Positions 10,194 to 58,762 of a stretch of DNA of 64,000 bases are shown here, piece after piece; position 1 is the first letter of the stretch, and each line of letters starts with the position of its first letter. Below the pieces are notes generated by a model. That model did not search any database, was not told the origin of the DNA, and saw only the letters and a list, made by a program, of their open reading frames with translations. The DNA lies in IMG/VR virus record IMGVR_UViG_3300029288_004479. One strand, 5' to 3'. This stretch comes from a virus (Duplodnaviria; Heunggongvirae; Uroviricota; Caudoviricetes). A program made the position numbers and the translations under genes.

Positions 10194-11749
10194 GAGGAAT
10201 GTTATAGATGAGGCAGCAAGAAAACCCCTGTTTTAAAACGGGGGATGAATTGTGTTAATCTATTTTTGTAAAAGTATATAACGTTAAAAAACAAATATAT
10301 GGTGTGGTAATGCAAACGGTATCGATCTATGCACGGCTTACCAAGAAACAGTTTCAAATAGTGGATACGTTAAGTTACCTGTCGAAGAACCTGTATAACG
10401 TCGGGGTGTATAACGCCCGACAGCATTACCACGAGATCCAGTTAGCGGGTTTAAGTAACCTTCGTCCGGATTTGATCAGTCTGTGGATGGATACGAAAAA
10501 GACATATTTACCGTATTCACGCGGGAAAGATAACCCGTATAAGGATTACAGTAATTATAATCGGTCGAAACAGAACGAGAATTACGGATTACTTCATTCG
10601 CAAGCAGCACAACAGACCCTTAAATCCGTTGAAGAGGGGTATATTAGTTTCTTCGGGTTAATAAAACTAAAAACGAGTGACAACGAGGATAATCCAGTGC
10701 GTCCTCCTCATTACCTCGATACCGAACACGGTCGGTATAAAGTGGCGTTTCCACGGAACAGTCTATCAATAAAAAAGAAAGGTGTCACTCTCGGAATGTC
10801 AGTTAAATTCAAGAAACTTCACGGATATACCGGGAAGGAACTGACATTCAAGATCCCGTCGTATCTAAAACCGCACCAGATCCGGGAAGTCACATTGTTA
10901 CCCATCCACGGTGGGAAATGCTATAAACTCTCGTTCAGTTACGAGATAAAAAGTATAAATAAGCCGGAGTTAAACCCCGACAAATACCTTGGTATCGACT
11001 TAGGCGTAAACAACTTTGCGGCACTTATCGAGAACGCTACCGGGACTGCCACTCTGTTAGATGGCAAGTATCTAAAATCACTGAACCGGTGGTATAACAA
11101 GACCAACGCAAAGTTACAGAGCGTCAAAGACAAACAGGGTATCTCGGGAATAACCAATCGTCAACACCGAATGCTTATAAAAAGAGAGAACCGTATCAGC
11201 GAAGCGATTAACCGATACGTAAACTTCGTGATCGACTACGCGATCAGATACAAGATAGGAAACATCGTATGTTTACGATGGGACGGCATCAAGCAGAACC
11301 GCAAAGCTTCCAAAAAAGGTAACCAGAACTTTGTTCAGATACCCTACGATATGTTCCGCACCCGTCTCGAAAACAAATGCAACCTATACGGCATCAAGTA
11401 CCACGGGAAAGACAGCGAAGCATACACGTCACGAACCGACGCTCTCGCATACGACGAGATCAAAGCGCAACCATACGGTAAATCACGCCGTATTAAACGC
11501 GGTCTGTATAAAAGCATTACCGGGGTAATCTTAAACGCTGATATTGTTGGTTCAATGAACCAGATCCGCAAAGTAGCTGGCGACGCTCCTGTAAAGGAAA
11601 TAGCTAGTAGTGGCCGTTTCAACCGGCCTGTGAGAATAAGGTTGGCTTTCGAGCCGGCAAACTTCTCCAAAGTAATTAGAACGAGATGTGTTGTTCACCA
11701 GAACGACCTCCCGCTCAATCCTCCCGTTTTAACGGGAGGTAGTTGAATT
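10194..11749 (+). mobile_element. IS200/IS605-family tnpB-only element (IS1341-type)
   Basis: LE hairpin CCCCTGTTTTAAAACGGGGG at ~10217; RE hairpin CCTCCCGTTTTAACGGGAGG at ~11720; both ends are repeated at 54483-54810. Confidence 0.8.
10310..11746 (+). CDS. tnpB: TnpB RNA-guided nuclease
   Basis: OrfB-like N-terminus; 3' end overlaps the RE/omega-RNA scaffold region. Confidence 0.85.
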   Translation: MQTVSIYARLTKKQFQIVDTLSYLSKNLYNVGVYNARQHYHEIQLAGLSNLRPDLISLWMDTKKTYLPYSRGKDNPYKDYSNYNRSKQNENYGLLHSQAAQQTLKSVEEGYISFFGLIKLKTSDNEDNPVRPPHYLDTEHGRYKVAFPRNSLSIKKKGVTLGMSVKFKKLHGYTGKELTFKIPSYLKPHQIREVTLLPIHGGKCYKLSFSYEIKSINKPELNPDKYLGIDLGVNNFAALIENATGTATLLDGKYLKSLNRWYNKTNAKLQSVKDKQGISGITNRQHRMLIKRENRISEAINRYVNFVIDYAIRYKIGNIVCLRWDGIKQNRKASKKGNQNFVQIPYDMFRTRLENKCNLYGIKYHGKDSEAYTSRTDALAYDEIKAQPYGKSRRIKRGLYKSITGVILNADIVGSMNQIRKVAGDAPVKEIASSGRFNRPVRIRLAFEPANFSKVIRTRCVVHQNDLPLNPPVLTGGS

Positions 11750-11975: not shown

Positions 11976-12064
11976 GCGCACGTAGGAAAGCGGATTATTC
12001 CACCGGACTTCTATCGTAAAAGGAAGATATCCGGATATCGTGGGTTCAAATCCCATCGTGCGCG
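11976..12064 (+). tRNA. tRNA-Arg(UCU) with 15-nt canonical-position intron (12014-12028)
   Basis: Acceptor GCGCACG/CGTGCGC; T-arm GTGGGTTCAAATCCCAT; anticodon CUUCUA pairs with intron GAAG (BHB). Confidence 0.75.
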
Positions 12065-12301
12065 TGCGCCCGGAACGGAAGCATCGAACGCATCCTTAAC
12101 TAAGATGCGGGGTAAATACCAGATGTATGACCGGAACAGATTGGGGCTATCCTAATCGAGGGGTTTAAGTCCCCGATCTGTGGCGTAGGCACTTCGGTGC
12201 CATAATAATAGAAGAACAGTGCGCTCGTAGTCTAGCCCGGACAAGGCTCCAGATTCCTAATCTGTTTGTCATGGGTTCAAATCCCCTCGGGATCGTTTAT
12301 T

Positions 12302-17798: not shown

Positions 17799-17871
17799 GG
17801 GTTTGTAGCATAGTAACAAGTGCGTTCGCCTCCAAAGCGAAAAGGCGAGGGTGCAATTCCCTTCAAGCCCA
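17799..17871 (+). tRNA. tRNA-Trp(CCA) with atypical T-loop (UGCAAUU, G at position 55)
   Basis: Acceptor GGGTTTG/CAAGCCC; D-stem GCAT/GTGC; anticodon arm TTCGC-CTCCAAA-GCGAA. Confidence 0.65.
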
Positions 17872-18773: not shown

Positions 18774-19853
18774 CAGGTTTACTCTTCTCAGGTCTCTGCA
18801 TTAGCGGAGAAGTCCGGTAACGGCACAGAACTTATTTCATTGTATATCCCCGGAACGAAACGGGTCGATGATATCACTCAAAGATTACGGGACGAACATT
18901 GTTCATGTGGCAATATCAAAAGTAAACAGACCAGAACAAACGTCCAGAAAGCGTTATCAGCAATAATCGCACGGTTATCTGGAGGTATCAAAACCTTCCC
19001 GGAAAACGGTATAATAATCTATTGTGGGGAAGTCGCGTTAGATCGTGGCGATAAAACCGAGTTCGAATATTATACATTCACACCGCCGCAACCGGTAAAA
19101 TCGTTTAGTTACAAATGTGACGCCAAGTTCGATACGGGTGACGCGCTCGCGCTCGCATCTGAAAAAGATACATATGCATTAATTGTGTTGGATCTACAGG
19201 AAGCGTGTTGGGGGACGCTTGAAGGATCAGCAATTCATGTTATGGGAACTTATGATTCAATCGTGCCGAACAAGCACGGACAAGGGGGGCAATCACAACA
19301 CAGGTTTGAACAATTAAGGCAGATTGCAATCAATGAATATTTTATAAAACTCTCGGAACGTGTTAACACATCGTTCCTCCCCTTGCTTGAGAAAAGCGTT
19401 CTCAAAGGCATTCTAATCGGCGGGTGTGGTATGACGAAAGACGAGTTCGTGAAAAGCGAGCATATGCACCACGAGTTACGGAAGGTTATTATTGGCACGT
19501 TTGACACGTCATATACTAACGAATATGGGTTAACAGAACTGGTCGAAGCATCGAAGAACAACCTGAAAGATATCGGGTTACGCGATGAGAAGATAGCATT
19601 CGACGAGTTCCTGAAAGAGTTGGCACGCGAATCTGGGAAAGTTGCATATGGAGTATCGGAAGTTCTACACAAAGCCGAGATCGGGCAGGTCAAGCGGGTG
19701 TTATTATCAACGTCTCGTGTTAACTTATATGATCAGATTGAGGAGAAAAACACTACTAATTATCAATTAGTATTAATCTCAAAAGATTCCGATAGCGGGT
19801 CGATGCTCGACAAAGGGTTCGGTGGGATTGTGGCGGTGTTGAGGTATGGATAG
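18774..19853 (+). CDS. prf1: archaeal peptide chain release factor aRF1 (domains 1-3), with no canonical start codon downstream of the in-frame TGA
   Basis: GNGTELISLYIP, NIKS, YxCxxxF (YKCDAKF) and GGQ (HGQGGQSQHRF) motifs; the first ATG/GTG/TTG in frame is TTG at 18840, inside the conserved domain. Confidence 0.8.
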   Translation, partial: QVYSSQVSALAEKSGNGTELISLYIPGTKRVDDITQRLRDEHCSCGNIKSKQTRTNVQKALSAIIARLSGGIKTFPENGIIIYCGEVALDRGDKTEFEYYTFTPPQPVKSFSYKCDAKFDTGDALALASEKDTYALIVLDLQEACWGTLEGSAIHVMGTYDSIVPNKHGQGGQSQHRFEQLRQIAINEYFIKLSERVNTSFLPLLEKSVLKGILIGGCGMTKDEFVKSEHMHHELRKVIIGTFDTSYTNEYGLTELVEASKNNLKDIGLRDEKIAFDEFLKELARESGKVAYGVSEVLHKAEIGQVKRVLLSTSRVNLYDQIEEKNTTNYQLVLISKDSDSGSMLDKGFGGIVAVLRYG

Positions 19854-24913: not shown

Positions 24914-25891
24914 ATGGGTGGCGGAAGCTATGACAGGGATGTAGGATCTTCATCCTCATCAGGAACGTTTTCAAGTGGCGGAACATCGAGTTCATCAGCA
25001 CGAGCAGCAATGGGAAGCAGGGATCAACCCAAGAGTACAAAAGTACAAAACCGAAGGGTTGAATCTAAATCAGAAAGTCCTATTGTTATCAATCTGGATG
25101 TAACCGGGTCAAACATAGAGTTTGCAAGGATAGTGTATGATAAATCACCGATGCTTTTCGGTCAGATCGAGCAGCAGGGGTATTTAAAGAATTTTGATAT
25201 CTGCTTTTCGGCGACGGGAGATGCAAATTCCGACAGTTGCCCGATTCAGGTATGTGATTTCAATACCGGTATAAAGTTAGACGACGAGCTTAAAAAGATA
25301 TATTTAGAAGGTGGTGGCGGGGGTCAGCTAAAAGAAACGTATGAACTCTCGGCGTATTACTTTGCACATTACTGTGACATGGTTAATGCAAAGACACCCT
25401 TTATGTTCTTTATCGTAGACGAAGCGCCATATAAAACTGTGCAGAAAGAGTTCATAGAGCAATATATGGGAGATTCGGTCGGAGAAGATATTGATTCAAA
25501 ACAGGTCTTCAGAGATCTCTTTAAGAAATTTCATGGCAACGTATTCATCTTCCAGAACAAGTATCTGGGATCGAGAAGCAGCGAGACAGAAGAGATCCGG
25601 GATGAATGGAGAGAGGTTCTTGGAAATACCTATAAGGATCATCTGATTCCGATAGAGGAAGAAAAGTCTATTGTTGACCTGATACTCGGAACAATAGCGA
25701 TGGTTTCCGGGTCGAGGAGTCTTACAACATACAAATCTGACATGGTATCAAGAGGACAGACAGACACCAGAATAGCGAAAGTTGAGAAATCCCTCCAAAC
25801 AATCTCAAAATCCATTGTTCCGAGAGTAAACGTTGATTTACCTACCGATACGGGTTCAGGAACGAAAAAACATACTGCGAGAAAGTTATAA
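24914..25891 (+). CDS. vWA-like domain protein with G/S-rich N-terminus
   Basis: INLDVTGSN MIDAS-like motif (DxTGS). Confidence 0.45.
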   Translation: MGGGSYDRDVGSSSSSGTFSSGGTSSSSARAAMGSRDQPKSTKVQNRRVESKSESPIVINLDVTGSNIEFARIVYDKSPMLFGQIEQQGYLKNFDICFSATGDANSDSCPIQVCDFNTGIKLDDELKKIYLEGGGGGQLKETYELSAYYFAHYCDMVNAKTPFMFFIVDEAPYKTVQKEFIEQYMGDSVGEDIDSKQVFRDLFKKFHGNVFIFQNKYLGSRSSETEEIRDEWREVLGNTYKDHLIPIEEEKSIVDLILGTIAMVSGSRSLTTYKSDMVSRGQTDTRIAKVEKSLQTISKSIVPRVNVDLPTDTGSGTKKHTARKL

Positions 25892-26778
25892 TGTTAGTTG
25901 CCACACTACCCTCATTACATAACCGTGAACTCATTGAGGAAATCTTTTCAAACCCTTTTGTGGGTGGTGTCAGGTATAACATCGGAGTAAGATCGAAATA
26001 TTCCCCAGAAGACACACTTCATCATCTTAATACATATACAGATAGATACGACAAACCCGTATGGATCGATCTTAAAGGAAGACAACTTCGTATAACAAAA
26101 TGGGCAGATCCTACCTATGGCGATATAGAACTTAACAGGAACATCTCAACAAGTCTCCCTGCAAAAGTCTATTTCAGAGGAGATGAAAATTGCTATACGC
26201 TCGATGATTATATGGATAACAAATTGTTTATTTACCCCGATCCACGTTATGCACTTGGAGCTGGGCAAGCTCTTAATATTATAAGTAACAATTGTAAAAT
26301 TATCGGAGATTACCTCACTCAGAAAGATATTGATTATATCAAAGCATCGGATAATGCCGGTATTCACGATTATATGTTATCTTTCGTTGAAACACAGTCT
26401 GATATTAAGGAAGTTCTGGCAGTTGATCCGAAAGCGAAACCGATACTGAAAATTGAGTCCATTAGTGGATTAGAGTTTGTAGAAAAAGAATATGGTGGGG
26501 AATACCAACTTATTGCTGCAAGGGATGACTTATCAATAAACTTAGAGAAAGATAACGTCAAAATGCAAAATGCTCTTACGCTCATCTTAAATAAAGATAA
26601 AAACGCGATAGTAGCCTCTAAAATATTTGAATCATTAAAGAGTGGTATTCCAGAAGATAAAACCGATATGTCCAACCTCATGAAAATGGGGTATAGAAAC
26701 TTTATGCTTGATGACACAATATCACAAAGATACTTCAAACAAGCAATACTGTTGTGGCAGCAATTGGTAGAACAATGA
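25891..26778 (+). CDS. pyruvate-kinase-like / HpcH-type TIM-barrel domain protein
   Basis: KILKIESISGLEFVEK...LIAARDDLSINL...ASKIFESL resembles PK KIENxEG / MVARGDLG / MLESM blocks. Confidence 0.45.
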   Translation: MLVATLPSLHNRELIEEIFSNPFVGGVRYNIGVRSKYSPEDTLHHLNTYTDRYDKPVWIDLKGRQLRITKWADPTYGDIELNRNISTSLPAKVYFRGDENCYTLDDYMDNKLFIYPDPRYALGAGQALNIISNNCKIIGDYLTQKDIDYIKASDNAGIHDYMLSFVETQSDIKEVLAVDPKAKPILKIESISGLEFVEKEYGGEYQLIAARDDLSINLEKDNVKMQNALTLILNKDKNAIVASKIFESLKSGIPEDKTDMSNLMKMGYRNFMLDDTISQRYFKQAILLWQQLVEQ

Positions 26779-29265: not shown

Positions 29266-29364
29266 GCTCCCGTAGTGTAGTGGCAATCATGTGAGACCTT
29301 CAAGAAAACAAGTGGTTAATTTCGAGGAAATCTCACGATATGGGTTCGAATCCCGTCGGGAGCA
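29266..29364 (+). tRNA. tRNA-Glu(UUC) with 27-nt canonical intron (29303-29329); C at position 33
   Basis: Textbook hBHBh' motif (TGAGA/TCTCA, CCTT/GAGG, AAA bulge); mature anticodon loop CCUUCAA. Confidence 0.7.
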
Positions 29365-29367
29365 TAT

Positions 29368-29438
29368 GCATCCTTGATCCAGAGGCAAGATACCAGCTTG
29401 ACATGCTGGAAACACAGGTTCGATCCCTGTAGGATGCA
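29368..29438 (+). tRNA. tRNA-Val(GAC)
   Basis: Acceptor GCATCCT/AGGATGC; anticodon loop TTGACAT; T-loop TTCGATC. Confidence 0.8.
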
Positions 29439-29441
29439 TGG

Positions 29442-29512
29442 GCACTCTTGATCTATAGGTATGATTTCTGGTCGCCAGCCAGAGAGAACGGGTTCGAATC
29501 CCGTAGAGTGCA
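29442..29512 (+). tRNA. tRNA-Gly(GCC); C at position 33
   Basis: Acceptor GCACTCT/AGAGTGC; anticodon arm TCTGG-TCGCCAG-CCAGA; T-arm ACGGGTTCGAATCCCGT. Confidence 0.7.
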
Positions 29513-29536
29513 TCCCCAAAAAGAGGGAAAACAAAT

Positions 29537-29782
29537 ATGACCGTAGATGAAACGTTAGATCGATTAGAACGAATAGGCACGCGGAAATCGTTTGTATATC
29601 ACGAAGATGTCTTGAAATTCGTCGATAGTGAACGAAATAAAGATCCAGAGATGCCGTATGGTAAGAAGCGGATGTTAGAGGATATCGAAACAGACGTTAT
29701 AACTCATATGGGTAATGGTAGAAAAACTATCCGGAACGAAGAGTTACGGGGTATAATTATACGCCAAAGAAGTTATCAATAA
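29537..29782 (+). CDS. hypothetical protein embedded in tRNA array
   Basis: 81 aa ORF; GAGGG SD upstream. Confidence 0.4.
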   Translation: MTVDETLDRLERIGTRKSFVYHEDVLKFVDSERNKDPEMPYGKKRMLEDIETDVITHMGNGRKTIRNEELRGIIIRQRSYQ

Positions 29783-29853
29783 GCTTCCGGAGTCTGTCGG
29801 AATGATGCATCGTTCTCGGCGATGCGGAATGGGTTCAATTCCCATCGGAAGTA
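29783..29853 (+). tRNA. tRNA-Glu(CUC)
   Basis: Anticodon arm CATCG-TTCTCGG-CGATG; T-arm ATGGGTTCAATTCCCAT. Confidence 0.75.
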
Positions 29854-29855
29854 TT

Positions 29856-29928
29856 GGGACAGTAGATCAGTTGGGAGATCGCTACACCGAAGATGTAGTC
29901 GTCACCGGTTCGAATCCGGTCTGTCCCG
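29856..29928 (+). tRNA. tRNA-Phe(GAA); C at position 33
   Basis: Acceptor GGGACAG/CTGTCCC; D-stem GATC/GATC; anticodon arm CTACA-CCGAAGA-TGTAG. Confidence 0.8.
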
Positions 29929-30108
29929 TCTCCTGTGGGAGAAATCTGCCATCAGTGGCGTGGCGTGGGCCTTAGGTTACATCAACCGAACGATCTAAAC
30001 GCTGGTACAGGTGAAATGGACGATCATTCAAGGCCAGTTACGGTCATCGAAATCCACGGGGTGCGACTCGTTCTAACACCTCAAAGAAACCCACCACAGG
30101 AGTTAATT

Positions 30109-30180
30109 GCGCTCGTAGCAGAGTGGTAATGCGGCAGGCTCTTAACCTGAAGATCGTGCGTTCGATCCGCACCGGGCGCA
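30109..30180 (+). tRNA. tRNA-Lys(CUU)
   Basis: Acceptor GCGCTCG/CGGGCGC; anticodon loop CTCTTAA; T-arm GTGCGTTCGATCCGCAC. Confidence 0.75.
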
Positions 30181-30252
30181 TTCCCCAAAAAAGGAGTATA
30201 AAATGTAAAAACCAGAGGATATAAATGTAAAGGCAACCAACAAGGATATGTT

Positions 30253-30323
30253 GCGACGATGATCTAACGGTATGATCCTACCCTTCCAAGGTAGAGGCCC
30301 GGGTTCAATTCCCGGTCGTCGCA
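30253..30323 (+). tRNA. tRNA-Gly(UCC)
   Basis: Acceptor GCGACGA/TCGTCGC; anticodon arm CTACC-CTTCCAA-GGTAG. Confidence 0.8.
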
Positions 30324-30397
30324 TGTCCCGTAGCACAGTCCGGTAGTGCGGCGTTCTTATAAGGCGTATGTCATGGGTTCGATCCCCATCGGGACAA
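30324..30397 (+). tRNA. tRNA-Ile(UAU); anticodon stem has three G-U pairs
   Basis: Acceptor TGTCCCG/CGGGACA; D-stem GCAC/GTGC; anticodon loop CTTATAA. Confidence 0.6.
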
Positions 30398-30400
30398 CTA

Positions 30401-30475
30401 GGGCGAGTAGCATAGTCCGGCTAATGCGTCAGTCTGATAAGCTGAAGACCGCAGATTCAAATTCTGCCTCGCCCA
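30401..30475 (+). tRNA. tRNA-Ile(GAU)
   Basis: Acceptor GGGCGAG/CTCGCCC; anticodon arm TCAGT-CTGATAA-GCTGA. Confidence 0.8.
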
Positions 30476-31081: not shown

Positions 31082-31155
31082 CCGTCAGTGTCAGAGCGGC
31101 TAACGAGACCGGCTGTAGACCGGTTAAATCGCAGGTTCAAATCCTGCCTGACGGA
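31082..31155 (+). tRNA. tRNA-Tyr(GUA); D-arm weakly paired
   Basis: Acceptor CCGTCAG/CTGACGG; anticodon arm ACCGG-CTGTAGA-CCGGT; T-arm GCAGGTTCAAATCCTGC. Confidence 0.65.
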
Positions 31156-31541: not shown

Positions 31542-32543
31542 ATGATTGAAGCAATTGTATATGCGATTGGCTTTATTGCCTTGATTGTTGGTATAGCAGT
31601 TATCGTAACAAGTGGAAACAGTGGGGGTAGCAGCGAAGAGAGACAGGATGCAAGAAGATATGCATCCCTTTTTATAATTATTGGTATCGTTTTCTTGATA
31701 TTGCCCTCGTTCTTCGTTGTAGTGGATGCCGGATATGTAGGTGTCCAGAAAACGCTTGGGAAAGTGGATACTAAAACACTCTCGCCGGGGCTGGCACTCA
31801 AGAACCCGCTCACCGAAGTCATTCAGATGAGTACACGTACAGTAAAGTACATTGATTATGGAAAGAGTGATGTAGCGACGATTACAGCGTTATCCAACGA
31901 TGGTCTTGAGACTTCAATGGGTATAGCAGTTACATATCACATCAACCCGGCGAAAGCAGCGGAGTTATACATTCAGGTCGGAGAAGGATATCAGGATATT
32001 GTAATGGTTAATCCGATCCATTCAGTCCCAAGAGACATGATCTCGAAGTATGATACGAAGACACTATATTCGGCGTCGCAGGAAGGTAGTACGGATCGGG
32101 CGATGCTCGAACAGGAACTTTACACCCAAGTATCAGAACGCATTAACGCGAACGGTGTGAGGGACTCAATTGTTGTTGAACAGGTATCGATTCGTAACAT
32201 TGACTTCGTGCAGACATATAAGGACTCGATTGCCTCAAAGATGAAGATGGACACGGAGATTCAGCAGAAGAAACTTGAAGTCGAAAGGCAGAAGATGGAA
32301 GCTGAACGTGTGGCAGCACAGGCAGAAGGAGAAGCGAATAAGGCAAGAATCGATGCTAAAGGTGAAGCTGACGCCGCTCGTATCAGAGCGCAGGGTACTA
32401 AAGATGCAATGGCACTTGTCGGAGACCAATATGCAAAGATCCTGTTCATCCAGACCATGAAGGATAACCCGAGAGCGATATATATCCCAATCGGGAATGA
32501 CGGGTTACCTATAATCAAGACGGTTGATACAGCAACAGTCTAA
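31542..32543 (+). CDS. SPFH/band-7 (stomatin/prohibitin/HflKC-like) membrane protein
   Basis: N-terminal TM segment; GYVGVQKTLGKV block; C-terminal A/E/K-rich coiled coil. Confidence 0.7.
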   Translation: MIEAIVYAIGFIALIVGIAVIVTSGNSGGSSEERQDARRYASLFIIIGIVFLILPSFFVVVDAGYVGVQKTLGKVDTKTLSPGLALKNPLTEVIQMSTRTVKYIDYGKSDVATITALSNDGLETSMGIAVTYHINPAKAAELYIQVGEGYQDIVMVNPIHSVPRDMISKYDTKTLYSASQEGSTDRAMLEQELYTQVSERINANGVRDSIVVEQVSIRNIDFVQTYKDSIASKMKMDTEIQQKKLEVERQKMEAERVAAQAEGEANKARIDAKGEADAARIRAQGTKDAMALVGDQYAKILFIQTMKDNPRAIYIPIGNDGLPIIKTVDTATV

Positions 32544-32605
32544 CCCCCTCTTTTTTTTCACCAATGTATATATAGTTAAATAACATTTATAATTATCACA
32601 AACGA

Positions 32606-32812
32606 TTGGTTTTTATTATGCAAAAGTCATCTAAACTCTGGAAGGAACCAGAAAAGAAGGATATAAGGTTACAGTGGAACGACCACGCAAAGTACAACTG
32701 TATCTGTGATGCAACCGGTTGGACAATCAATCGTGGTGATCCGATTTATTATGATAAATTAAACAAAAAGATTTATTGCCAAAAATCTTTCTGCAAAGAA
32801 CAAAAAGGATAA
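32606..32812 (+). CDS. hypothetical protein
   Basis: 68 aa ORF. Confidence 0.35.
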   Translation: MVFIMQKSSKLWKEPEKKDIRLQWNDHAKYNCICDATGWTINRGDPIYYDKLNKKIYCQKSFCKEQKG

Positions 32813-32877
32813 TATTTTCACAAACTTTTGACAAAGTATATCTGCAAGGAATCATATATCAGATATAGAGACCTATT

Positions 32878-33228
32878 ATGGATAACACAAAAGAACATTG
32901 GTATGTTATCAGTGAGGATCAGTTGCAAACAATTGAACTCAACTTAAAAGAACGCGATTCGGACGGTTATGATGGATTTATGGCAGCGATCCGTGCGAAT
33001 CCATTACACGAACAATCAACAATTGAACTATGTAATAAGATTCACAAAATAAGTGAAAAGATGAAGTCTCTTGAAGAGGAGACTGATCACCAGATCGAGA
33101 GAATGGATGAACAAATATCTGATATCATGATTGCCATTGGGAGTAGGGATCGAGAGATCTCTGATCTAAAAACCCAAATCGATAAGATTAGTGAACTTAA
33201 AAAAGATGAAAAGCATTGCCACAAATGA
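32878..33228 (+). CDS. hypothetical coiled-coil protein
   Basis: 116 aa ORF. Confidence 0.4.
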   Translation: MDNTKEHWYVISEDQLQTIELNLKERDSDGYDGFMAAIRANPLHEQSTIELCNKIHKISEKMKSLEEETDHQIERMDEQISDIMIAIGSRDREISDLKTQIDKISELKKDEKHCHK

Positions 33229-33278
33229 TTTTTGGCAAAGTATACACAATCCTATAAACCGGTTATTGGTGGTAAAAA

Positions 33279-33725
33279 GTGGGAATTTTAAACGATATTA
33301 ATAAAGCATTACAATTAAATAAAAAACCCTCTCGCAAAGATGAAGGTTTACAACTTACTGGTAATAAAACTACAGTAGAAATTCCGTATAAAAAATGTCG
33401 AAATTGTCCATCATATAAGTGGATAAGTCAGATTGATTGGGATAAAAAACAAGATAATGGATATAGTGCGTGTTCAGATACGGGCAGTCCACTTAAAGAA
33501 TATGGTTATGCAGCACCTCCGCAGTCCTGCCCAAAAAAGGGTAAAGAAATTAGAGATAAAGAAGATTATTATAAAGAATTTGTTTTTAGATCAGGAATGA
33601 TGGCATTCGATGCGTTTCCAAATATTACGGCATGTCTGGAATATATTGCCACGAATCCCGAAGAATCGATGATTACAAGAGAATTTGCGTTATTAGCACT
33701 GAAAAGAGAGGAATGGATTGTATAA
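33279..33725 (+). CDS. hypothetical Cys-containing protein
   Basis: 148 aa ORF. Confidence 0.4.
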   Translation: MGILNDINKALQLNKKPSRKDEGLQLTGNKTTVEIPYKKCRNCPSYKWISQIDWDKKQDNGYSACSDTGSPLKEYGYAAPPQSCPKKGKEIRDKEDYYKEFVFRSGMMAFDAFPNITACLEYIATNPEESMITREFALLALKREEWIV

Positions 33726-33829
33726 TATATAATCGGATTGGGGATACGCCATCTTCAAAGACTATCATAAATTTTTTTGAGAAAGTATATTTACATTGCC
33801 GACATACACAATCCTACAAATGTTAATTA

Positions 33830-34900
33830 GTGGTGGATAAAATGTCGAAACAGAACCGCGATGTAGTAAGAGACGCGGTGTTTAAACGAGATAAGGAGAA
33901 ATGCGTGGTTCCCTACTGTAAGTGCAAACCGGACGACGCCCACCACCTCATTGAACGCAAACTATGGGATGAGAATACCGAGAACGGTGGATATATTCTG
34001 GAAAATCTGGTATCCGTATGTGAACGGCACCACAAACTCTGCGAGAACAATACGATCCTCCCGCGCACGTTACGTGCATATGCAGGAATAAACGAAGTCC
34101 TCCTACCAAAATCATTTGATAAAACAAAAGAATACGATAAGTGGGGTCGGGTGCTTGAACCACCAGCAAGAGAGCGAATGAAATACCCGCATACGCCGTA
34201 TTTACCATTCAGTCCAAGTGCAGATGAAAAGGATGTAAGGGAAAGCGGATATATGGATATACGGTGCCTGCTGAACAAACCGTTGCACATCTCAATAAAG
34301 ATGGATGGTAGCAATATATTGCTGACAAGAAATAATATCGCAGCTCGGAACGGATATGATGCGACTGGCAAGAGTTTCGATATGGCGAAACAAACCCATT
34401 CGATGTTTAAACACCTTATCCCGGAAGATGAGATGTGGTTTGGGGAATGGCTGTATGCAAAACACAGTATCCATTATATTGAGAATCTCAAACTAACGAA
34501 CTATCTGCAACTGTTCGGGATATACAATAAGAAAACACACATGTGGGCCGGTATTACTGATATACATGATCGGGTTAGCGAAGTAATAATCGAAACCGAT
34601 ATTACGCCGCCGCTTGCAGTGGGAGTGAATATCCCGGAAAAAGCACCAAGCATATCAGATATCCTTAACGGCAAAAGTGTTTACACGAACGAGAAAGACC
34701 TGAAAAACGAGTTAATTAAAATTGGGAATAGTGCGGTTAAGGGTGGGCACGAAGGTATAATTGTCAGGAACATGTATCCCTTCCATCACTCTCGATGGAA
34801 TGAGAACATAGCGAAGTTTGTCCGGGCGAATCATATCCAGACGAACAAACATTGGAGTCGTGGGCCGATCACTCGGAACGAAATAATGGAGAATGTATAA
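33830..34900 (+). CDS. HNH endonuclease domain fused to ATP-dependent RNA ligase (Rnl2-type nucleotidyltransferase)
   Basis: HNH: CVVPYC..C...HH......N..SVCERHH; ligase motif I KMDGSN, III FGEWL, IV HEGIIVRN, V IAKFVRANH. Confidence 0.65.
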   Translation: MVDKMSKQNRDVVRDAVFKRDKEKCVVPYCKCKPDDAHHLIERKLWDENTENGGYILENLVSVCERHHKLCENNTILPRTLRAYAGINEVLLPKSFDKTKEYDKWGRVLEPPARERMKYPHTPYLPFSPSADEKDVRESGYMDIRCLLNKPLHISIKMDGSNILLTRNNIAARNGYDATGKSFDMAKQTHSMFKHLIPEDEMWFGEWLYAKHSIHYIENLKLTNYLQLFGIYNKKTHMWAGITDIHDRVSEVIIETDITPPLAVGVNIPEKAPSISDILNGKSVYTNEKDLKNELIKIGNSAVKGGHEGIIVRNMYPFHHSRWNENIAKFVRANHIQTNKHWSRGPITRNEIMENV

Positions 34901-38913: not shown

Positions 38914-39331
38914 AAGTTTACATTACTAATGTATAAAGTTATTTATTTGACGGTTAAATTACAACAATTAAAAACTGGAGAAGAATCACATGACAACGTA
39001 TCTTCAATGTAAAAAATGTGGGTATAAATTTGCAGTCTCAACAACGGCGTATTTAGCCGGGGTTGTTAACTGTCCACGATGTGGTGTGCCACATGCAGAC
39101 AAGTATTCGAATGAGAGTAATAATAGAAATATCCACTAAAACAAGGATTGAAACACCCTCATCTTGATTTCTAATTCCCCCGAATCCGGAGGAATTAAAA
39201 AAAAGAAAGAATAAGGATTAGATTCTGTTAAGTTCATATTAATATCATACAAACAAATAAAACAGAAATCAGATCATCATTATAAAGAAAAAACATATAT
39301 AGAATGATGCAAGATTATATTCAGGTGAAAT

Positions 39332-42055: not shown

Positions 42056-42129
42056 GCACCCGTAGCGAAGTTGGTTATCGCGTCGGTTTTACATGCCGAA
42101 GACCGTCGGTTCGAACCCGACTGGGTGCA
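42056..42129 (+). tRNA. tRNA-Val(UAC)
   Basis: Acceptor GCACCCG/TGGGTGC; D-stem GCGA/TCGC; anticodon arm TCGGT-TTTACAT-GCCGA. Confidence 0.8.
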
Positions 42130-42210: not shown

Positions 42211-42339
42211 GGGTTGGTATCTCAGTTGGTAGAGAGTCCGGCTGTTACAAGAGAGAATAAAAGATTGTGTGATTCATGATTTTGACCCCTCTCTCTTGCA
42301 GAAACCGGAATGTCAAGAGTTCGAGCCTCTTCCGACCCG
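42211..42339 (+). tRNA. tRNA-Asn(GUU) with 56-nt canonical intron (42248-42303)
   Basis: Perfect hBHBh' (CTGT/GCAG, TAC and AAA bulges, 7-bp h'); acceptor GGGTTGG/CCGACCC. Confidence 0.8.
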
Positions 42340-42634: not shown

Positions 42635-42719
42635 AACGGGGTGGGGTAGTCAGGATAACCCGCTAGACCCATAATCTAGAGACCTCACGGCTTGCGAAGG
42701 TTCGAATCCTTCCCCCGTT
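42635..42719 (+). tRNA. tRNA with CAU anticodon (Met or Ile2 type); C at position 33; 16-nt variable region (possible non-canonical intron)
   Basis: Acceptor AACGGGG/CCCCGTT; D-stem GGGT/ACCC; anticodon arm CTAGA-CCCATAA-TCTAG; T-arm GAAGGTTCGAATCCTTC. Confidence 0.6.
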
Positions 42720-42739
42720 ATATAAGTTTTGGAGTTGTA

Positions 42740-54810: not shown

Positions 54811-55459
54811 AGAGAGATTTGAATTAATTGATCAGGATGTGAAGTCAACACCCGGTACATTTAATTTAACCCCGGATGAATTTGAACAAGTGAGACGACA
54901 CTGTCAACTACCCCGCCATAAATGACGGGGCTTGCGAATGGCTAAGCAGGACTAAACAGTAGACTAGACCGAAACAGGTGTGAGAACACAATGTCAAACG
55001 CGAAACGAACTACAAGAACGGATCTCAGTGCTTCCCTAGCTCTGCCCACTTCTGGGTGCGCCAACCCCGGAGTTCCGGAAACGGAACTAAGTTCGTCTTG
55101 CAAGGTCGAAGGGAAATTTAACCCGAAGAAAATTCGGAGTCATAATATGCGAGTACCAGTAATGGATGCCGAAAGACACCCGTTGATGCCGACCACAGGG
55201 GTCAGGCATCAGCGTACTGGAACAAATTAGGCATTTTCTGTAGAATCCTAAAAAAGACAGTTGTACCAAACAATTAATTGGATAATAAGATTCCTCTTAA
55301 TAACGACCGGTCTTGCACTAATGTATATTGGTTTTAAGAACCGGCCCGTGAATGATCCGGGTTCATTGAGATCAGGGATACTTATAATAGTCTCAGCGGT
55401 TGCAGTTTTTATTGTAATGTTTTTAATATACGCAAATTACGTATTTCAATAAAAAAAGA

Positions 55460-56385: not shown

Positions 56386-58144
56386 AGTTATATTAGTAAT
56401 CTCTAAGTAACTACTTATATACGTTTCCCCCCGTTTTTGGAAAGGTATGTTATCAGTGTCCGGTTTTCCGGTTTAGACCGGTCTTTCTAAGGAATAGTTA
56501 AAAGGTACAGTAATATAAGACATTCTAATAAGTTGTACGATGAAGTACAGTCTTTAAAAAATCGGTACTTCAATAACAACAAATCCTAAATAAGAACCTA
56601 TCCTTTAGTAAAGTAACAATATATTACGTAGTATTACTTTAATTAAGTAAATAGACTTCAATAAGAACTGTTCTTCCGGTATACTCCAAGTTTTGCCTAC
56701 ATTTTGACAGTAAGTTTGCTATGTATAATTAAAAGTATAAAAAACGGCAAAACGGAGAGATTTCAGATATATGGGAGTTGAAATCCGGGTTCAATAGATG
56801 GAAAATGGGGGTCTTTATGAGTTATTAGAAGATGAAATGGAAAAGAATTGAATGGTGAAAGGTGATACTATGTAAAAGTATATATCCTCAAACGAACTAC
56901 CTAATTAGTGTATGACAGAACTCAACCGACTTCCCAAACGGATCTTCCGTTCGGGGGTAAGTCAAGTTGAATCTTCTCGTCAACATGAAGAGCATGGTAA
57001 GACCGTTATTGATTGGTTCTCCTCCTCACCTACCGTCGATAAGCAGGTTAACCATGCCATTCATAAGACAACCGAGATGTTGACTGACATAAGGTTTACT
57101 GGCATTTTCCTTTCTCCAAATCAACATATAGGTTAAACGTCTGTCATACACTATATTTTTTTATTTAGACTTTAAACTCTACGACGGTGGAAGGCAATAG
57201 AAGCGTTCTATTGGCATTTCTCAGTCCAGATCGATATTTCATACCCTCGAATTAAATCTACAGGCGTTAGCAGATCATATCCGATATGTATATTATCCCC
57301 GTCATATTCTATATCTCTCGTCTGTAAGTACACAGATATCTAGGGCTGCTGTAAATTATTCAAATATACATATACAGAAATATAGAACAAACTAGTGTTT
57401 CATAGCGAGACTAAAATAATGTATATACAGAATTGTATATGTACTTAGTAAACTTTGGCTCCACAGTAAACATAACAAACCACTGTACCCTAACAAACAA
57501 TTATGCTGCCATACCAGATCCAATAATCAATTGTTCTAAAAGATATAGTAAACTAGCGAACCGTTGCAACTTGCAGATTGCTTAAGTACATTAAATATTT
57601 AGTGTGGTGCGGACTAACCTGTATTAAATTATACATATACAATTACATTGAGTAATATATACCATAGCGAACCCAAGCAGATCCTATATCTAATATAATA
57701 GAAAACTAGAAGCGCCCAGCACAGCACAGAACAACATTTGATGATCATTGCATAGATCCTTTTAAACAAGCAAACGCAGGGTCACACCAACACTTATCCG
57801 GAATACATTGAGATCATCTAACCGGAAGCGATAGCGTTCGTTTTAAGAGCATTAAGATCTTGTAACATAAGTATACTAAATAATATGTGGGCAGCAAAAT
57901 TGTACACTACCATAGATCAGATAAACAATATGATACCTGCCAGATTAAGAATTACCTAATTAAGTCCGGACTAATAAGATTGTGCTACCAAAGAACACCA
58001 TACAATGTAAACAGGAACAATATTATATACTTTGAAGGCGATGTTATTGTAGGCACTCGATAGCCTCAATTGTCTACAACCAATGGTTGTCAAAAGATGG
58101 ATCGATGATGCCAAGCAAAGTAAAAAAATATAGGAGATTGTAAA

Positions 58145-58762
58145 ATGAAACTTAAGTATGTTTTAGGAGCCTTTTTTGTTCTGCTTGCACTTGTTGCAGT
58201 AGCACCGGTCTCTGCGGTCTTCAACGACCAGACCATTGCAAATCAGAACTCAGGTGTCTTTAGTTACCAGATCATCCACGCAGGTCAGACTGGTGCGTTC
58301 AACGACCAACAGGCTCTTGACAAGAACAGTGGACTTTTCAATGAGCAGGTTATTGATGTAGCCCAGATGGGATTCAGCAACGACCAGAATGTTTACAATG
58401 ACAACACTGGACTCTTCAATGAGCAAGACCTTGATGCAAACCAGATGGGATCGTTCAACACCCAGCAGGTTGCAAACACCAACACCGGTCTCTTCAACGA
58501 GCAGGATGTAACAGTATTCCAGAACGGTGCATTCAATGAGCAGACCGCTGTTAACACCAACACTGGTGCATTCAACGAGCAGTCAATCTTTGCAACCCAG
58601 AACGGTGCATTCAACGATCAGGATGTCTACAACACCAACAACGGCGCATTCAGCGAGCAGAGTATTGTAGCAGTCCAGAACGGATTCAACAACGACCAGT
58701 ACGTTGCAAACACCAACACCGGTGCATTCAGCGAACAGGTTATTGATGCAAATCAGGGATAA
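58145..58762 (+). CDS. secreted tandem-repeat protein (~16 repeats of an 11-residue unit with consensus NTGAFNEQxV)
   Basis: Signal peptide; periodic FN(D/E)Q repeats. Confidence 0.5.
   Translation: MKLKYVLGAFFVLLALVAVAPVSAVFNDQTIANQNSGVFSYQIIHAGQTGAFNDQQALDKNSGLFNEQVIDVAQMGFSNDQNVYNDNTGLFNEQDLDANQMGSFNTQQVANTNTGLFNEQDVTVFQNGAFNEQTAVNTNTGAFNEQSIFATQNGAFNDQDVYNTNNGAFSEQSIVAVQNGFNNDQYVANTNTGAFSEQVIDANQG

Follow-up and report, generated by a model that had tools for sequence, protein, structure and literature searches.

Archaeal-type tRNA arrays beside a release factor gene in a large AT-rich element that looks virus-like

Large viruses and giant genetic elements bearing their own tRNA genes are known from bacteria, haloarchaea, Methanoperedens (the Borgs) and protists, and the role of such tRNAs is debated, the candidates being codon supply, independence from a collapsing host and escape from tRNA-cutting defences. 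Among archaeal viruses a close case is HGTV-1 (Hagravirus, Halomagnusviridae), a haloarchaeal virus of 144 kb, about 50% GC and known head and tail genes, in which dozens of tRNA genes lie in short arrays amid small ORFs and homing endonucleases and at least one has an intron. Of the archaeal viruses it is the richest in tRNAs. Its 34 tRNAs cover every amino acid except histidine, and codon usage accounts for only part of the set (PMC13532342). Methanoperedens is associated with Borgs and mini-Borgs, archaeal elements of huge size that have one-strand genes, proteins mostly without known function, abundant perfect tandem repeats and a GC content of 30-35% (about 10 points under that of Methanoperedens, according to a 2026 preprint). 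They carry 5-23 tRNAs and a T4-like RNA ligase beside a radical SAM protein and a homing endonuclease, as well as a DNA methylase and cell-decoration genes (PMC11208441, PMC12660748), and a counter-defence role has been inferred for the ligase (PMC11208441). T4-like and jumbo phages likewise combine clustered tRNA genes with an RNA ligase, which in T4 (Rnl1) is paired with a polynucleotide kinase; their hosts are bacterial and their tRNAs are of bacterial type without bulge-helix-bulge (BHB) introns. Giant viruses of the Klosneuvirus and Tupanvirus type encode many tRNAs together with a class I release factor of the eRF1/aRF1 family and a peptidyl-tRNA hydrolase, and tRNAs beside a release factor of their own are an already known habit of very large viruses. 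In the Megaviricetes tRNAs and translation factors are common (PMC11946776). Archaeal extrachromosomal replicons with translation genes include the Methanoperedens plasmid HMp_v5, with three tRNAs, uL16 and aIF-2 beta (PMC9674854), and haloarchaeal megaplasmids bearing a short aRF1 paralogue; these have at most three tRNAs, no arrays and genes on both strands.

The family described here adds a case from methanogen habitats. The window, as we call the whole stretch of 64,000 nucleotides that was analysed, comes from the middle of a metagenome contig of 216.8 kb, with 36-43% GC per 2 kb (mean about 39%, GC3 0.38) and a GC skew that is positive throughout. Its long ORFs lie almost all on the + strand, most of its genes belong to no family, IS200/605 elements are present, and genes for ribosomal proteins, synthetases, polymerases and rRNA are absent from about 84 kb (the window with 10 kb on either side), all of which agrees with the mobile or virus-like, non-chromosomal archaeal context proposed in a first-pass annotation of this DNA. 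Pfam and PHROGs searches revealed no virion hallmark (capsid, portal or terminase) in the same 84 kb or in the loci of relatives, no replication or partition hallmark in the 84 kb types the element, save a ParB-like N-terminal domain, and no integrase was seen within the window. INPHARED gave no DNA match to the window, IMG/VR no family member by aRF1 profile, two single proteins or exact 30-mer, and a PADLOC scan generic kinase matches only. We place the contig in an archaeal element of virus-like character, AT-rich and large (at least 217 kb), whose family is apparently undescribed. Across the array region the contigs of separate data sets agree at 99.995-100% identity, so the array is not an assembly artefact.

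tRNA genes were called with the Rfam RF00005 covariance model at its gathering score of 29 bits, with ARAGORN as second caller. The two concur on nine tRNAs at 29266-30475, all on the + strand and with the anticodons first given to them, and the six tRNAs annotated outside this cluster are also genuine; the annotated total of 15 has to be raised to 16 tRNA-like genes by the addition of Arg-CCU. The covariance model accepted every locus and rejected none (35.6-69.4 bits for all 16), and ARAGORN finds the identical loci if introns are permitted, with wrong anticodons at intron-bearing genes (Glu or Arg-UCG at 29266, Tyr at 42211). The anticodons of the intron-bearing genes were set by their BHB splice sites and covariance-model alignments, and match the first-pass reading.

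The cluster opens with tRNA-Glu(UUC) at 29266-29364 (49.9 bits), which has a 27-nt intron and C33 in place of the universal U33; tRNA-Val(GAC) follows after 3 nt at 29368-29438 (59.0 bits; ARAGORN concurs), and then tRNA-Gly(GCC) at 29442-29512 (51.1 bits), whose loop register UCGCCAG, again with C33, is set by the alignment. An 81-aa ORF on the + strand that matches no known family (29537-29782) interrupts the array before tRNA-Glu(CUC) at 29783-29853 (41.1 bits; ARAGORN concurs), a gene with a weak D stem that was dropped by the filters of the whole-window gathering run and recovered in further RF00005 scans. tRNA-Phe(GAA) at 29856-29928 (60.2 bits; aligned anticodon loop CCGAAGA, C33) is separated from tRNA-Lys(CUU) at 30109-30180 (63.8 bits) by a GC-rich spacer of 177 nt (29931-30107, +) with a 9-bp closing stem; as a structured RNA this spacer was rejected, folding no better than shuffles (z-score -0.8) and having no Rfam match. 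tRNA-Gly(UCC) at 30253-30323 (65.0 bits) directly abuts tRNA-Ile(UAU) at 30324-30397 (61.7 bits), which with its loop CUUAUAA reads AUA directly, and the cluster ends with tRNA-Ile(GAU) at 30401-30475 (69.4 bits) and a T6 run 3' of it. Ile-UAU is a rare tRNA type among archaea.

Outside the cluster, and likewise on the + strand, lie tRNA-Arg(UCU) at 11976-12064 (55.8 bits, 15-nt intron), the Arg-CCU-like gene at 12221-12295, tRNA-Trp(CCA) at 17799-17871 (60.4 bits), tRNA-Tyr(GUA) at 31082-31155 (51.2 bits; archaeal type, with C1-G72 and a short variable arm), tRNA-Val(UAC) at 42056-42129 (66.5 bits), tRNA-Asn(GUU) at 42211-42339 (50.1 bits, 56-nt intron) and a CAU tRNA at 42635-42720 (55.3 bits with alignment). 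The last has the loop CCCAUAA with C33, an initiator-like A1-U72 pair and D arm, and an insertion of 12-13 nt in the variable region. At 35.6 bits the Arg-CCU gene is barely above threshold, with non-standard pairs or mismatches in its acceptor, anticodon and T stems, and it is probably decaying. A T-arm-like remnant was noticed in the 155-nt spacer at 12066-12220.

In their introns the genes follow the archaeal rule, as had been annotated: Arg-UCU, Glu-UUC and Asn-GUU each have the canonical BHB motif at 37/38, read from sequence and fold as a 4-bp helix between two 3-nt bulges, as does Lys-UUU just outside the window (L004:1509-1622). In Glu-UUC (exon 1 29266-29302, intron 29303-29329, exon 2 29330-29364) the stem UGAGA/UCUCA, central helix CCUU/GAGG, bulges CAA and AAA and inner helix GAAA/UUUC leave a mature anticodon loop CCUUCAA. 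The Arg-UCU intron (12014-12028) has the stem CCGGA/UCCGG, helix CUUC/GAAG, bulges UAU and AUA and an inner helix of 1 bp only; that of Asn-GUU (42248-42303) has the stem UCCGG/CCGGA, helix CUGU/GCAG, bulges UAC and AAA and an inner helix of 9 bp. BHB cores are also present in the relatives L134 and L146, and Lys-UUU introns of 40, 31 and 16 nt keep their cores and differ in their interiors. The intron-bearing tRNAs would depend on the splicing machinery of an archaeal host. None of the window's tRNAs is followed by an encoded 3' CCA, and no anticodon in the window begins with A34; among the relatives there are Arg-ACG and Val-AAC, unusual for archaea. By their BHB introns, the lack of CCA, C1-G72 in Tyr and A1-U72 in the CAU tRNA, the genes are archaeal in type. 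Spacings of 0-3 nt between neighbours, with TATA-like boxes and oligo-T runs around the arrays, would fit transcription as short polycistrons.

tRNA sequence makes up 677 of the cluster's 1210 bases, and over the whole window a tRNA occurs about every 4 kb. In archaeal chromosomes the figure is roughly one per 40-60 kb; the density here is far above theirs, as had been noted, and is far beyond chance. Six further tRNAs lie within 10 kb of the window (three Thr, Lys-UUU and Asp upstream, Ala downstream), giving at least 22 in 84 kb, which decode about 71% of the element's own codons. Over the same 84 kb no tRNA was seen for Leu, Ser, Pro, Gln, His, Cys or Arg-CGN.

Relatives were found through the release factor aRF1, of which the element encodes a short, diverged form. 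At all 13 loci with an aRF1 of this clade tRNA genes adjoin, from one (on a 1.5-kb fragment) to 24 (in 21 kb), so that arrays are invariably paired with an element-encoded aRF1 in the relatives found. In L134 the order is that of the window: Arg-UCU, Arg-CCU, aRF1 and Trp, then an array of Glu-UUC, Val-GAC, Gly-GCC, Glu-CUC, Phe, Lys-CUU, Ile-GAU and Tyr, then DUF1848 followed by Asn, CAU and Val-UAC. The 81-aa ORF and the 177-nt spacer are missing there, leaving Gly-GCC and Glu-CUC, and Phe and Lys-CUU, 3 nt apart; the Glu-UUC orthologue is intronless, and the CAU orthologue (L134:17774-17848) has U33 and no variable-region insertion. Ile-UAU also occurs in L140, L143 and L146, making four family members in all. 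Gene order is held between elements whose aRF1 proteins are merely about 57-59% identical, and orthologous tRNAs share 52-87% identity. Across six orthologues each, both sides of the stem are altered in 16 of 21 pairs in Arg-UCU and in 13 of 21 in Tyr-GUA, where C1-G72 is kept in all six. The kept order and the divergence of the tRNAs with compensatory stem changes indicate that the array is old, inherited and selected, and because the arrays are old and syntenic this selection is measurable. None of about 30 relatives with a short aRF1 comes from an NCBI genome or MAG, in a comparison made by aRF1 sequence.

The aRF1 gene (18840-19853, +; Pfam eRF1 domains 1-3) encodes a protein that is 50-65% identical to other members of its clade and 37-46% to cellular aRF1, lacks an insertion of about 50 aa, retains the NIKS, YxCxxxF and GGQ motifs and groups with archaeal factors of the Halobacteriota type; the short paralogue of haloarchaeal megaplasmids is merely 30-34% identical to it. 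Stop-codon reassignment was rejected as its explanation, as stop usage is ordinary (69 TAA, 32 TGA, 11 TAG), the tRNAs seen include none with a suppressor anticodon, and the factor retains its recognition motifs. An HNH-RNA ligase fusion (33830-34900, +; Pfam PF09414, phrog_24030 at E = 7e-68, HNH families) sits 2.7 kb past Tyr-GUA and may be regarded as a candidate tRNA repair enzyme; its 362-aa neighbour, tried as an end-healing kinase or phosphatase, has no family match. Genes beside the arrays of relatives encode a T4 Rnl1-type ligase (L147), RlaP (L146) and a CCA-adding-enzyme homologue (L143), and RNA ligases, RlaP, CCA-adding enzyme and the peptidyl-tRNA hydrolase PTH2 recur by arrays across the family. 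Genes of cellular type comprise aRF1, PurA, AglB and PTH2, with a histone in relatives.

With HGTV-1 the element shares its archaeal nature, short tRNA arrays amid small ORFs and homing endonucleases, introns in tRNA genes, and a block of an SPFH gene, two or three small genes and the HNH-RNA ligase. In the window this block opens with an SPFH/Band 7 protein (31542-32543, +; Pfam PF01145), which is 28% identical to HGTV-1 gp229 and has the same order relative to the ligase, and the top match of the ligase in the phage collection is HGTV-1 gp233 (36% over 96%), ahead of jumbo phages of 310-485 kb. A whole-proteome comparison with HGTV-1 yields these two proteins only from the window, and CCA-adding enzyme and the nucleotidyltransferase RlaP from the loci of two relatives. 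The order Thr-UGU, Thr-CGU, Thr-GGU, Lys-UUU is also common to both; shared ancestry of this block was rejected, since cognate pairs are 54-68% identical against a non-cognate mean of 59%. HGTV-1 differs from the element (at least 217 kb, 39% GC, from methanogenic habitats, no virion gene in the window and 10 kb on either side) in the size, host and virion genes given above, and has neither an aRF1 nor a C33 tRNA. The element resembles Borgs in size, archaeal nature, one-strand genes and proteins mostly without known function, whereas its GC content is higher, perfect tandem repeats number just two in 64 kb, both of them short (15 nt x 2.1 and 32 nt x 2.0), besides one coding repeat, its AglB is nearest to that of Methanoregula where Borgs are bound to Methanoperedens, and the Borg literature searched mentions no release factor. 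A Borg, a Methanoperedens plasmid and a jumbo circular element were each judged a poor fit from their descriptions. No kinase like that of T4 was found next to the ligase, and giant viruses have eukaryotic hosts and an unrelated genome type, whereas the element's aRF1 and tRNAs are archaeal.

A Methanoregula-type methanogen of higher GC content is the probable host, as suggested by AglB, whose named best matches are exclusively Methanoregula and Methanoregulaceae (57-63% identity). A Methanoregula-like contig from the same ENA sample (L148) serves as candidate host; with 51.7% GC and GC3 0.57 it confirms that the element is of low GC by comparison. A solitary CRISPR repeat hints at repeats of Methanosarcinales type, contrary to this assignment: its 3' 20-mer matches at least 120 loci, mostly of Methanosarcinales. 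Host assignment by CRISPR was rejected, as the 5' half of the repeat fits none of these well and none of their spacers matches the window.

In our view the cluster fairly likely belongs to a conserved module for translation support, carried by a large AT-rich archaeal element that is either extrachromosomal or viral. The genes are real, archaeal in type, and conserved in order and structure over the element family, and we infer that their products are expressed, processed, charged and of benefit. A broad, cell-like tRNA set is spread over short arrays around aRF1, peptidyl-tRNA hydrolase and the HNH-RNA ligase. Each sub-array would be transcribed into a short polycistron, driven by an A/T-rich TATA-like box and terminated at an oligo-T stop. 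The RNase P and RNase Z of the host would separate the transcripts, the host splicing endonuclease and ligase would remove the introns at the BHB, the host CCA-adding enzyme would finish the 3' ends, and host synthetases would charge the tRNAs. Translation of the element would then depend little on how large the host tRNA pool is and what it contains, including at AUA, AGA and AAA codons, and the array may cushion the loss of host tRNAs during takeover or defence. The impaired-looking genes, namely Arg-CCU with its mismatches, the four C33 tRNAs and the CAU tRNA with its insertion, weigh against this reading, as do the amino acids for which no tRNA was seen, the lack of a hallmark that types the element within the 84 kb, the absence of the family from IMG/VR and the indirect nature of the host assignment.

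The C33 excess is unexplained and the oddest feature of these tRNAs, bearing on their function and not on their identity as tRNA genes. C33 stands in four of the window's 16 tRNAs (Glu-UUC, Gly-GCC, Phe-GAA and the one with CAU) and in 12 of 113 over the family, against 0 of 37 for HGTV-1 (Fisher p = 0.04). Among orthologues it recurs, that of Gly-GCC being found in L134 and L146 too. It may be relaxed constraint, because further universal positions drift as well, in family and HGTV-1 tRNAs alike, and some T loops deviate.

That the tRNAs serve solely to supply A/U-ending codons poorly decoded by a GC-richer host seems to us quite unlikely. Relative to the candidate host contig the element is indeed lower by about 12 points in GC and 19 in GC3, and Ile-UAU, Arg-UCU and Lys-UUU match codons that it over-uses (AUA 3.3-fold, AGA 2.6-fold and AAA 2.1-fold), with AUA making up 35% of Ile codons in the window and Ile-UAU recurrent in the four family members. 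To this extent the codon-usage adaptation that had been annotated stands; it fails for GUC, GGC, AUC, ACC and GAG, under-used codons (0.30- to 0.63-fold) read by Val-GAC, Gly-GCC, Ile-GAU, Thr-GGU and Glu-CUC. Over-use is seen in 12 of 22 codons with a cognate element tRNA against 16 of 39 without (Fisher p = 0.42; Mann-Whitney p = 0.58), on a host codon table of 20 genes from a contig that is a candidate host only. Nor is the set enriched in readers of A/U-ending codons, as had been thought: with five U34, five C34 and six G34 the wobble pattern is ordinary for archaea, and Glu (UUC and CUC), Gly (UCC and GCC), Val (UAC and GAC) and Arg (UCU and CCU) are split boxes with both members.

It is unlikely, though plausible, that the arrays act chiefly in counter-defence, the tRNAs replacing or decoying host tRNAs cut by an anticodon-loop nuclease, the ligase resealing them and the C33 versions being uncuttable. 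The position of the ligase, its nearest kin in tRNA-rich HGTV-1 and jumbo phages, the repair-type genes by relatives' arrays, the recurrent C33 and the like inference for Borgs all speak for it, if indirectly. Set against them are the want of any known nuclease for the host and of an end-healing partner by the ligase, relaxed constraint as another source of C33, and the finding that U33C has no effect on cleavage by the K. lactis gamma-toxin (PMC2275089); the U33/C33 literature offers no evidence of C33 blocking a nuclease. A tRNA-rich stretch in the chromosome of some uncultured archaeon, such as a symbiont with a small genome, would account for the genes of cellular type and is extremely improbable, given 22 tRNAs without a single core gene in about 84 kb, one-strand genes mostly without family and a shortened, paralogue-like aRF1 whose clade is absent from NCBI genomes; the Methanoregula-like contig, by contrast, bears ordinary core genes and lacks tRNAs across 19 kb. 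Decay is visible in Arg-CCU, the T-arm-like remnant, the deviations at U33 and in T loops and the CAU insertion, as would be expected of non-functional passengers, that is, tRNA genes acquired from hosts or left by integration. The conserved order despite divergent aRF1, the widespread compensatory changes, the intron cores kept while interiors vary and the lack of an integrase in the window make that explanation very improbable.

Returning to the translation-support module, a bolder version of it would be a lineage of undescribed viruses or virus-like elements of Methanomicrobiales, over 200 kb in size, that inherits vertically a near-complete decoding set with spliced tRNAs, a TiaS-independent Ile-UAU and a trimmed release factor of its own, and has C33 in a tenth of its tRNAs as an escape from a host anticodon-loop nuclease; we hold this only tentatively, and it is on balance doubtful. 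If the element is a virus, it has a larger genome than HGTV-1, the archaeal virus that has been described as the largest known. The recurrence of C33 offers a concrete starting point for asking whether host nucleases shape the tRNAs of such elements. Among 12 concatenated window proteins of no family, phage matches were obtained only for those at 24914-25891 and, adjoining it, 25891-26778, which match a 485-kb phage and cluster C mycobacteriophages (155 kb for the matches of the first).

All nine tRNA genes of the dense cluster at 29266-30475 were confirmed on the plus strand, both by ARAGORN with and without introns allowed and by the Rfam tRNA covariance model, in the order Glu-UUC, Val-GAC, Gly-GCC, Glu-CUC, Phe-GAA, Lys-CUU, Gly-UCC, Ile-UAU and Ile-GAU. 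With covariance scores of 41.1 to 69.4 bits, all clear the curated threshold of 29 bits; Glu-CUC, dropped by the speed filters in the initial whole-window run, scored 41.1 bits in reruns. The six tRNAs reported elsewhere in the window (Arg-UCU, Trp-CCA, Tyr-GUA, Val-UAC, Asn-GUU and a CAU tRNA) were also borne out, and all 15 genes of the first-pass annotation are thus real, but its total was short by one: a sixteenth locus, Arg-CCU at 12221-12295 (35.6 bits), has non-standard pairs in three stems and looks like a decaying gene. Five further tRNAs (Thr-UGU, Thr-CGU, Thr-GGU, Lys-UUU and Asp-GUC) lie at most 10 kb upstream of the window and a sixth, Ala-UGC, at most 10 kb downstream, giving 22 in the roughly 84 kb of window and flanks, a set that could together decode about 71% of window codons. 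Independent data sets yielded contigs with 99.995-100% identity across 21 kb spanning the array, so the underlying sequence is sound. Two spacers inside the arrays are absent from the related locus L134, one GC-rich, of 177 nt and with a 9-bp closing stem (29931-30107), and the other of 155 nt (12066-12220), containing a T-arm-like GGGGTTTAAGTCCCC and possibly representing a dead tRNA.

Three window tRNAs have introns, namely Arg-UCU (15 nt; exons joined at 12013/12029), Glu-UUC (27 nt; 29302/29330) and Asn-GUU (56 nt; 42247/42304), as does Lys-UUU (40 nt; L004:1509-1622, in the stretch close upstream of the window). In all four the intron lies between nucleotides 37 and 38, and the motif comprises the anticodon stem, a 4-bp helix in which nucleotides 32-35 pair with the intron 3' end, and an inner helix. 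The splice sites sit in two 3-nt bulges, one on each strand, and minimum-energy folds are consistent with this canonical intron motif. The Lys-UUU core CUUU-UAA...GAAG-(A/C)AA is common to three elements, whose intron interiors measure 40, 31 or 16 nt. Since the canonical motif recurs in all four genes and this core is kept, the earlier proposal that the introns follow the archaeal bulge-helix-bulge rule is supported, and the splice sites uphold the anticodons first assigned to the intron-bearing genes, for which those called by ARAGORN are wrong. Intron presence differs among orthologues, Glu-UUC and Arg-UCU of L134 being intronless. Further archaeal marks are the absence of an encoded 3' CCA from the window tRNAs, the C1-G72 pair and short variable arm of Tyr-GUA in 6/6 orthologues, and the initiator-like pair A1-U72 and D arm of the CAU tRNA (42635-42720). 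This CAU tRNA does not have the anticodon-stem G-C run, and it carries a 12-13-nt variable-region insertion that its L134 orthologue does not have. A34 anticodons are normally missing from archaea; Arg-ACG and Val-AAC nevertheless occur in relatives (L134:9468-9544, L139:348-423, L140:105-178 and 879-951), other relatives having the usual Arg-GCG.

An exact-protein look-up showed the window to be the central part of a 216,809-bp JGI contig (3300037067, Ga0378408_0000072), and identical stretches are also present in ENA and Logan assemblies. Nearly all long ORFs lie on the plus strand, GC skew is positive almost throughout, GC content is about 39%, and most products belong to no Pfam or PHROG family. 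Those that can be recognised are the oligosaccharyltransferase AglB, three TnpB copies and one IS200-type TnpA, a ParB-like N-terminal domain, the release factor aRF1, a Ser/Thr kinase, a uridine-kinase-like protein, PurA, an SPFH protein, an HNH-RNA ligase, DUF1848, a DNA methylase, a B12/radical SAM pair, glycosyltransferases and, directly beyond the window end, PTH2. Ribosomal protein, synthetase, polymerase and rRNA genes are all absent from the 84 kb or so of window and flanks. This stretch is not a segment of a chromosome, and the mobile, virus-like setting first proposed for the array was right, given its one-strand genes, mostly family-less products and missing core genes.

The kind of element is harder to name. 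Neither capsid, portal nor terminase genes were seen with Pfam and PHROG in the window with 10 kb on either side or in the relatives' loci; no family member was matched in IMG/VR by an aRF1 profile, two single proteins or an exact 30-mer, and INPHARED gave no DNA match to the window. The HNH-RNA ligase (33830-34900) is the clearest link to a bona fide virus, its best phage-collection match being gp233 of the haloarchaeal tailed virus HGTV-1 (36% identity over 96% of its length) and its next-best matches coming from phages of 310-485 kb. In both HGTV-1 (gp229-gp233) and the window (31542-34900) an SPFH protein, 28% identical between the two, lies upstream of the ligase, with three small intervening genes in the virus and two in the window; outside this block the two share almost nothing. 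HGTV-1 encodes 34 tRNAs, and its 143,855-bp genome has been described as the largest of any archaeal virus (PMC13532342). The order Thr-UGU, Thr-CGU, Thr-GGU, Lys-UUU is common to the element (L004:1181-1622) and HGTV-1 (49103-48804, minus strand); common descent of this block was rejected, as cognate tRNAs of the two resemble each other no more than non-cognate ones do. Features that Borgs share with the element are a one-strand gene order, tRNA genes (5-23 in Borgs), an RNA ligase (T4-like in Borgs, with a radical SAM protein and a homing endonuclease next to it), a DNA methylase and cell-decoration genes (PMC11208441, PMC12660748). They are defined by 30-35% GC, abundant tandem repeats and a link to Methanoperedens, and on each of these descriptions the element is set apart from them. 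Methanoperedens plasmids have at most three tRNAs (PMC9674854), and the published description of jumbo circular elements mentions no tRNA arrays. From the missing virion genes, the misfit with Borgs and the limited link to HGTV-1, we describe the element as large, virus-like and archaeal, and of unsettled type.

The element's aRF1 belongs to a clade of short release factors (277-381 aa) found only on metagenome contigs of up to 220 kb and in no NCBI genome. Clade members are 50-65% identical to the element's protein, with one closer fragment at 86%, and cellular factors (403-433 aa; Methanosarcinales, Methanocella, Methanoregulaceae) only 37-46%. The short clade keeps the NIKS, YxCxxxF and GGQ motifs and is without the approximately 50-residue domain 3 insertion of the cellular factors. 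The reading frame of the element's gene (18774-19853) is open upstream of the called TTG start; because the conserved motif KSGNGTELISLYIP is encoded there and a TTA (18801) stands where relatives have Met, the start may be non-canonical or the start codon recently lost. Haloarchaeal megaplasmids (PLSDB hits H26-H40) likewise carry a release factor on an archaeal extrachromosomal replicon, a short aRF1 paralogue of about 326 aa that is 30-34% identical to the element's.

tRNA genes lie beside the short-clade aRF1 at every locus recovered: 24 in the 21 kb read at L134, 17 in 13.7 kb (L135), 14 in 11 kb (L146), 13 in 12 kb (L140), 11 in 12 kb (L143), 8 in 5.5 kb (L141), 6 in 21 kb at both L132 and L147, and 1-4 in the 1.1-1.8 kb read at each of L138, L139, L142 and L144. 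The gene order of the window is kept in L134, where it runs Lys-UUU, Asp; Arg-UCU, Arg-CCU; aRF1; Trp; Glu-UUC, Val-GAC, Gly-GCC, Glu-CUC, Phe-GAA, Lys-CUU, Ile-GAU, Tyr-GUA; DUF1848; Asn, CAU, Val-UAC, and several small uncharacterised proteins are common to the aRF1 loci at 30-60% identity. Across these partial loci the family tRNAs cover 19 of the 20 amino acids, only Cys not being seen. Orthologous tRNAs are only 52-87% identical, with pairs kept by two-sided changes (16/21 in Arg-UCU, 13/21 in Tyr-GUA). Such divergence with compensatory pairing shows that the arrays are old, have been passed down vertically in the lineage and are selected for their structure; they are neither recent pick-ups nor debris.

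Gaps between neighbouring tRNAs measure 0-3 nt, A/T-rich TATA-like boxes stand 25-40 nt upstream of the first gene of each sub-array, and oligo-T runs lie 3' of Ile-GAU, Tyr and Asn. Because the background is itself AT-rich, these signals argue only weakly that the sub-arrays would be transcribed as short polycistronic precursors. Judging by the anatomy of the genes, host RNase P and RNase Z would be needed for maturation, the host splicing endonuclease and a ligase would remove the introns, a CCA-adding enzyme would complete the 3' ends and host synthetases would charge the products. The arrays are constantly accompanied in the family by aRF1, PTH2 and RNA ligases, the last being Rnl2-like in the window, Rnl1-type in L147 and RlaP in L146, and L143 has a CCA-adding-enzyme homologue. 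Because of this constant company, we consider it fairly likely that the arrays are part of a module that sustains translation on the element's behalf. As a kind, arrays of tRNA genes are already known from very large genomes of viral or extrachromosomal nature; the family, its constant aRF1 partner, the spliced tRNAs and an excess of C33 appear to be undescribed in the searchable literature and collections.

Within this general reading the main benefit may lie in serving the element's codons, in freedom from a shrinking host tRNA pool, or in repairing or replacing tRNAs after nuclease attack, which we treat as rivals that are not mutually exclusive. As to the host, named best hits of the full-length AglB are confined to Methanoregula, Methanoregulaceae and Methanomicrobiales (57-63% identity), one hit lying on L148, a normal chromosomal contig that encodes eIF2-gamma, ribosomal proteins and Kae1 and stems from the ENA sample in which the element also occurs. 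A solitary CRISPR repeat (39118-39154; RF01320, 45.8 bits), with no array and in the 3' end of a small zinc-ribbon ORF, has its 3' 23 nt identical to repeats commonest in Methanosarcinales; spacers in 120 fetched CRISPR loci gave no match to the window. Since AglB and L148 favour Methanoregula while the CRISPR repeat favours Methanosarcinales, the host can only tentatively be called Methanoregula-like. With L148 as its proxy (GC 51.7% versus 39% in the window, GC3 0.57 versus 0.38), the element over-uses UUA 5.3-fold, CUA 5.1-fold, CAA 3.6-fold, AUA 3.3-fold, AGA 2.6-fold and AAA 2.1-fold. Ile-UAU, Arg-UCU and Lys-UUU are consistent with a role in codon compensation, and Ile-UAU, seen in four family members, stands out because AUA is normally read in archaea by a modified CAU tRNA. 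The codon-bias argument is right only in part: it fits these three tRNAs but not the readers of GUC, GGC, AUC, ACC and GAG, codons that the element avoids. The suggested enrichment in readers of A/U-ending codons found no support, since the wobble bases of the window tRNAs (5 U, 5 C, 6 G) follow the ordinary archaeal pattern; codons that have a cognate tRNA on the element are not enriched overall for over-use (12/22 versus 16/39, p = 0.42).

The oddest feature of the element is C33, with the register of the anticodon loop fixed by covariance-model alignments. It occurs in 4/16 window tRNAs, Glu-UUC (29266-29364), Gly-GCC (29442-29512), Phe-GAA (29856-29928) and CAU (42635-42720), and also in Ala-UGC (L010:10729-10802, a locus of the same element), making five on the element. 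Across the family 12/113 tRNAs have C33, repeatedly so among orthologues (Gly-GCC in three elements, Ala-UGC and Glu-UUC in two each), compared with 0/37 in HGTV-1 (p = 0.04 for family versus HGTV-1) and 1/25 in an IMG/VR virus. Almost all tRNAs carry U33, and a U33C change gave no protection against the K. lactis gamma-toxin (PMC2275089), so escape from a nuclease has no direct support as an explanation of C33. Some T loops also deviate, in element and HGTV-1 tRNAs alike.

Elsewhere in the window, one candidate for an origin of replication or a control region is a 1.7-kb AT-rich, ORF-free stretch between divergently oriented genes (56386-58144), where GC skew flattens and short ATACATATACA-type repeats are present in both orientations. 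A HEARO/omega-RNA-like match at 54903-55121 (52 bits, below the threshold of 83) is adjoined by copies of the sequences on either side of the TnpB gene at 10304-11746 (region 10202-11747), and the segment 54474-55121 looks like an IS remnant without its TnpB. At 24914-26778, a 325-aa uncharacterised protein (phrog_2971) has counterparts in an uncultured phage of 485 kb and in about 200 mycobacteriophages of cluster C, whose genomes measure about 155 kb; the neighbouring protein of 295 aa has a match in the 485-kb phage only. Finally, a secreted protein with about a dozen 13-residue repeats (NTGAFNEQ-like; 58145-58762) is followed by a second secreted protein, and both are kept in the related loci L132 and/or L147.
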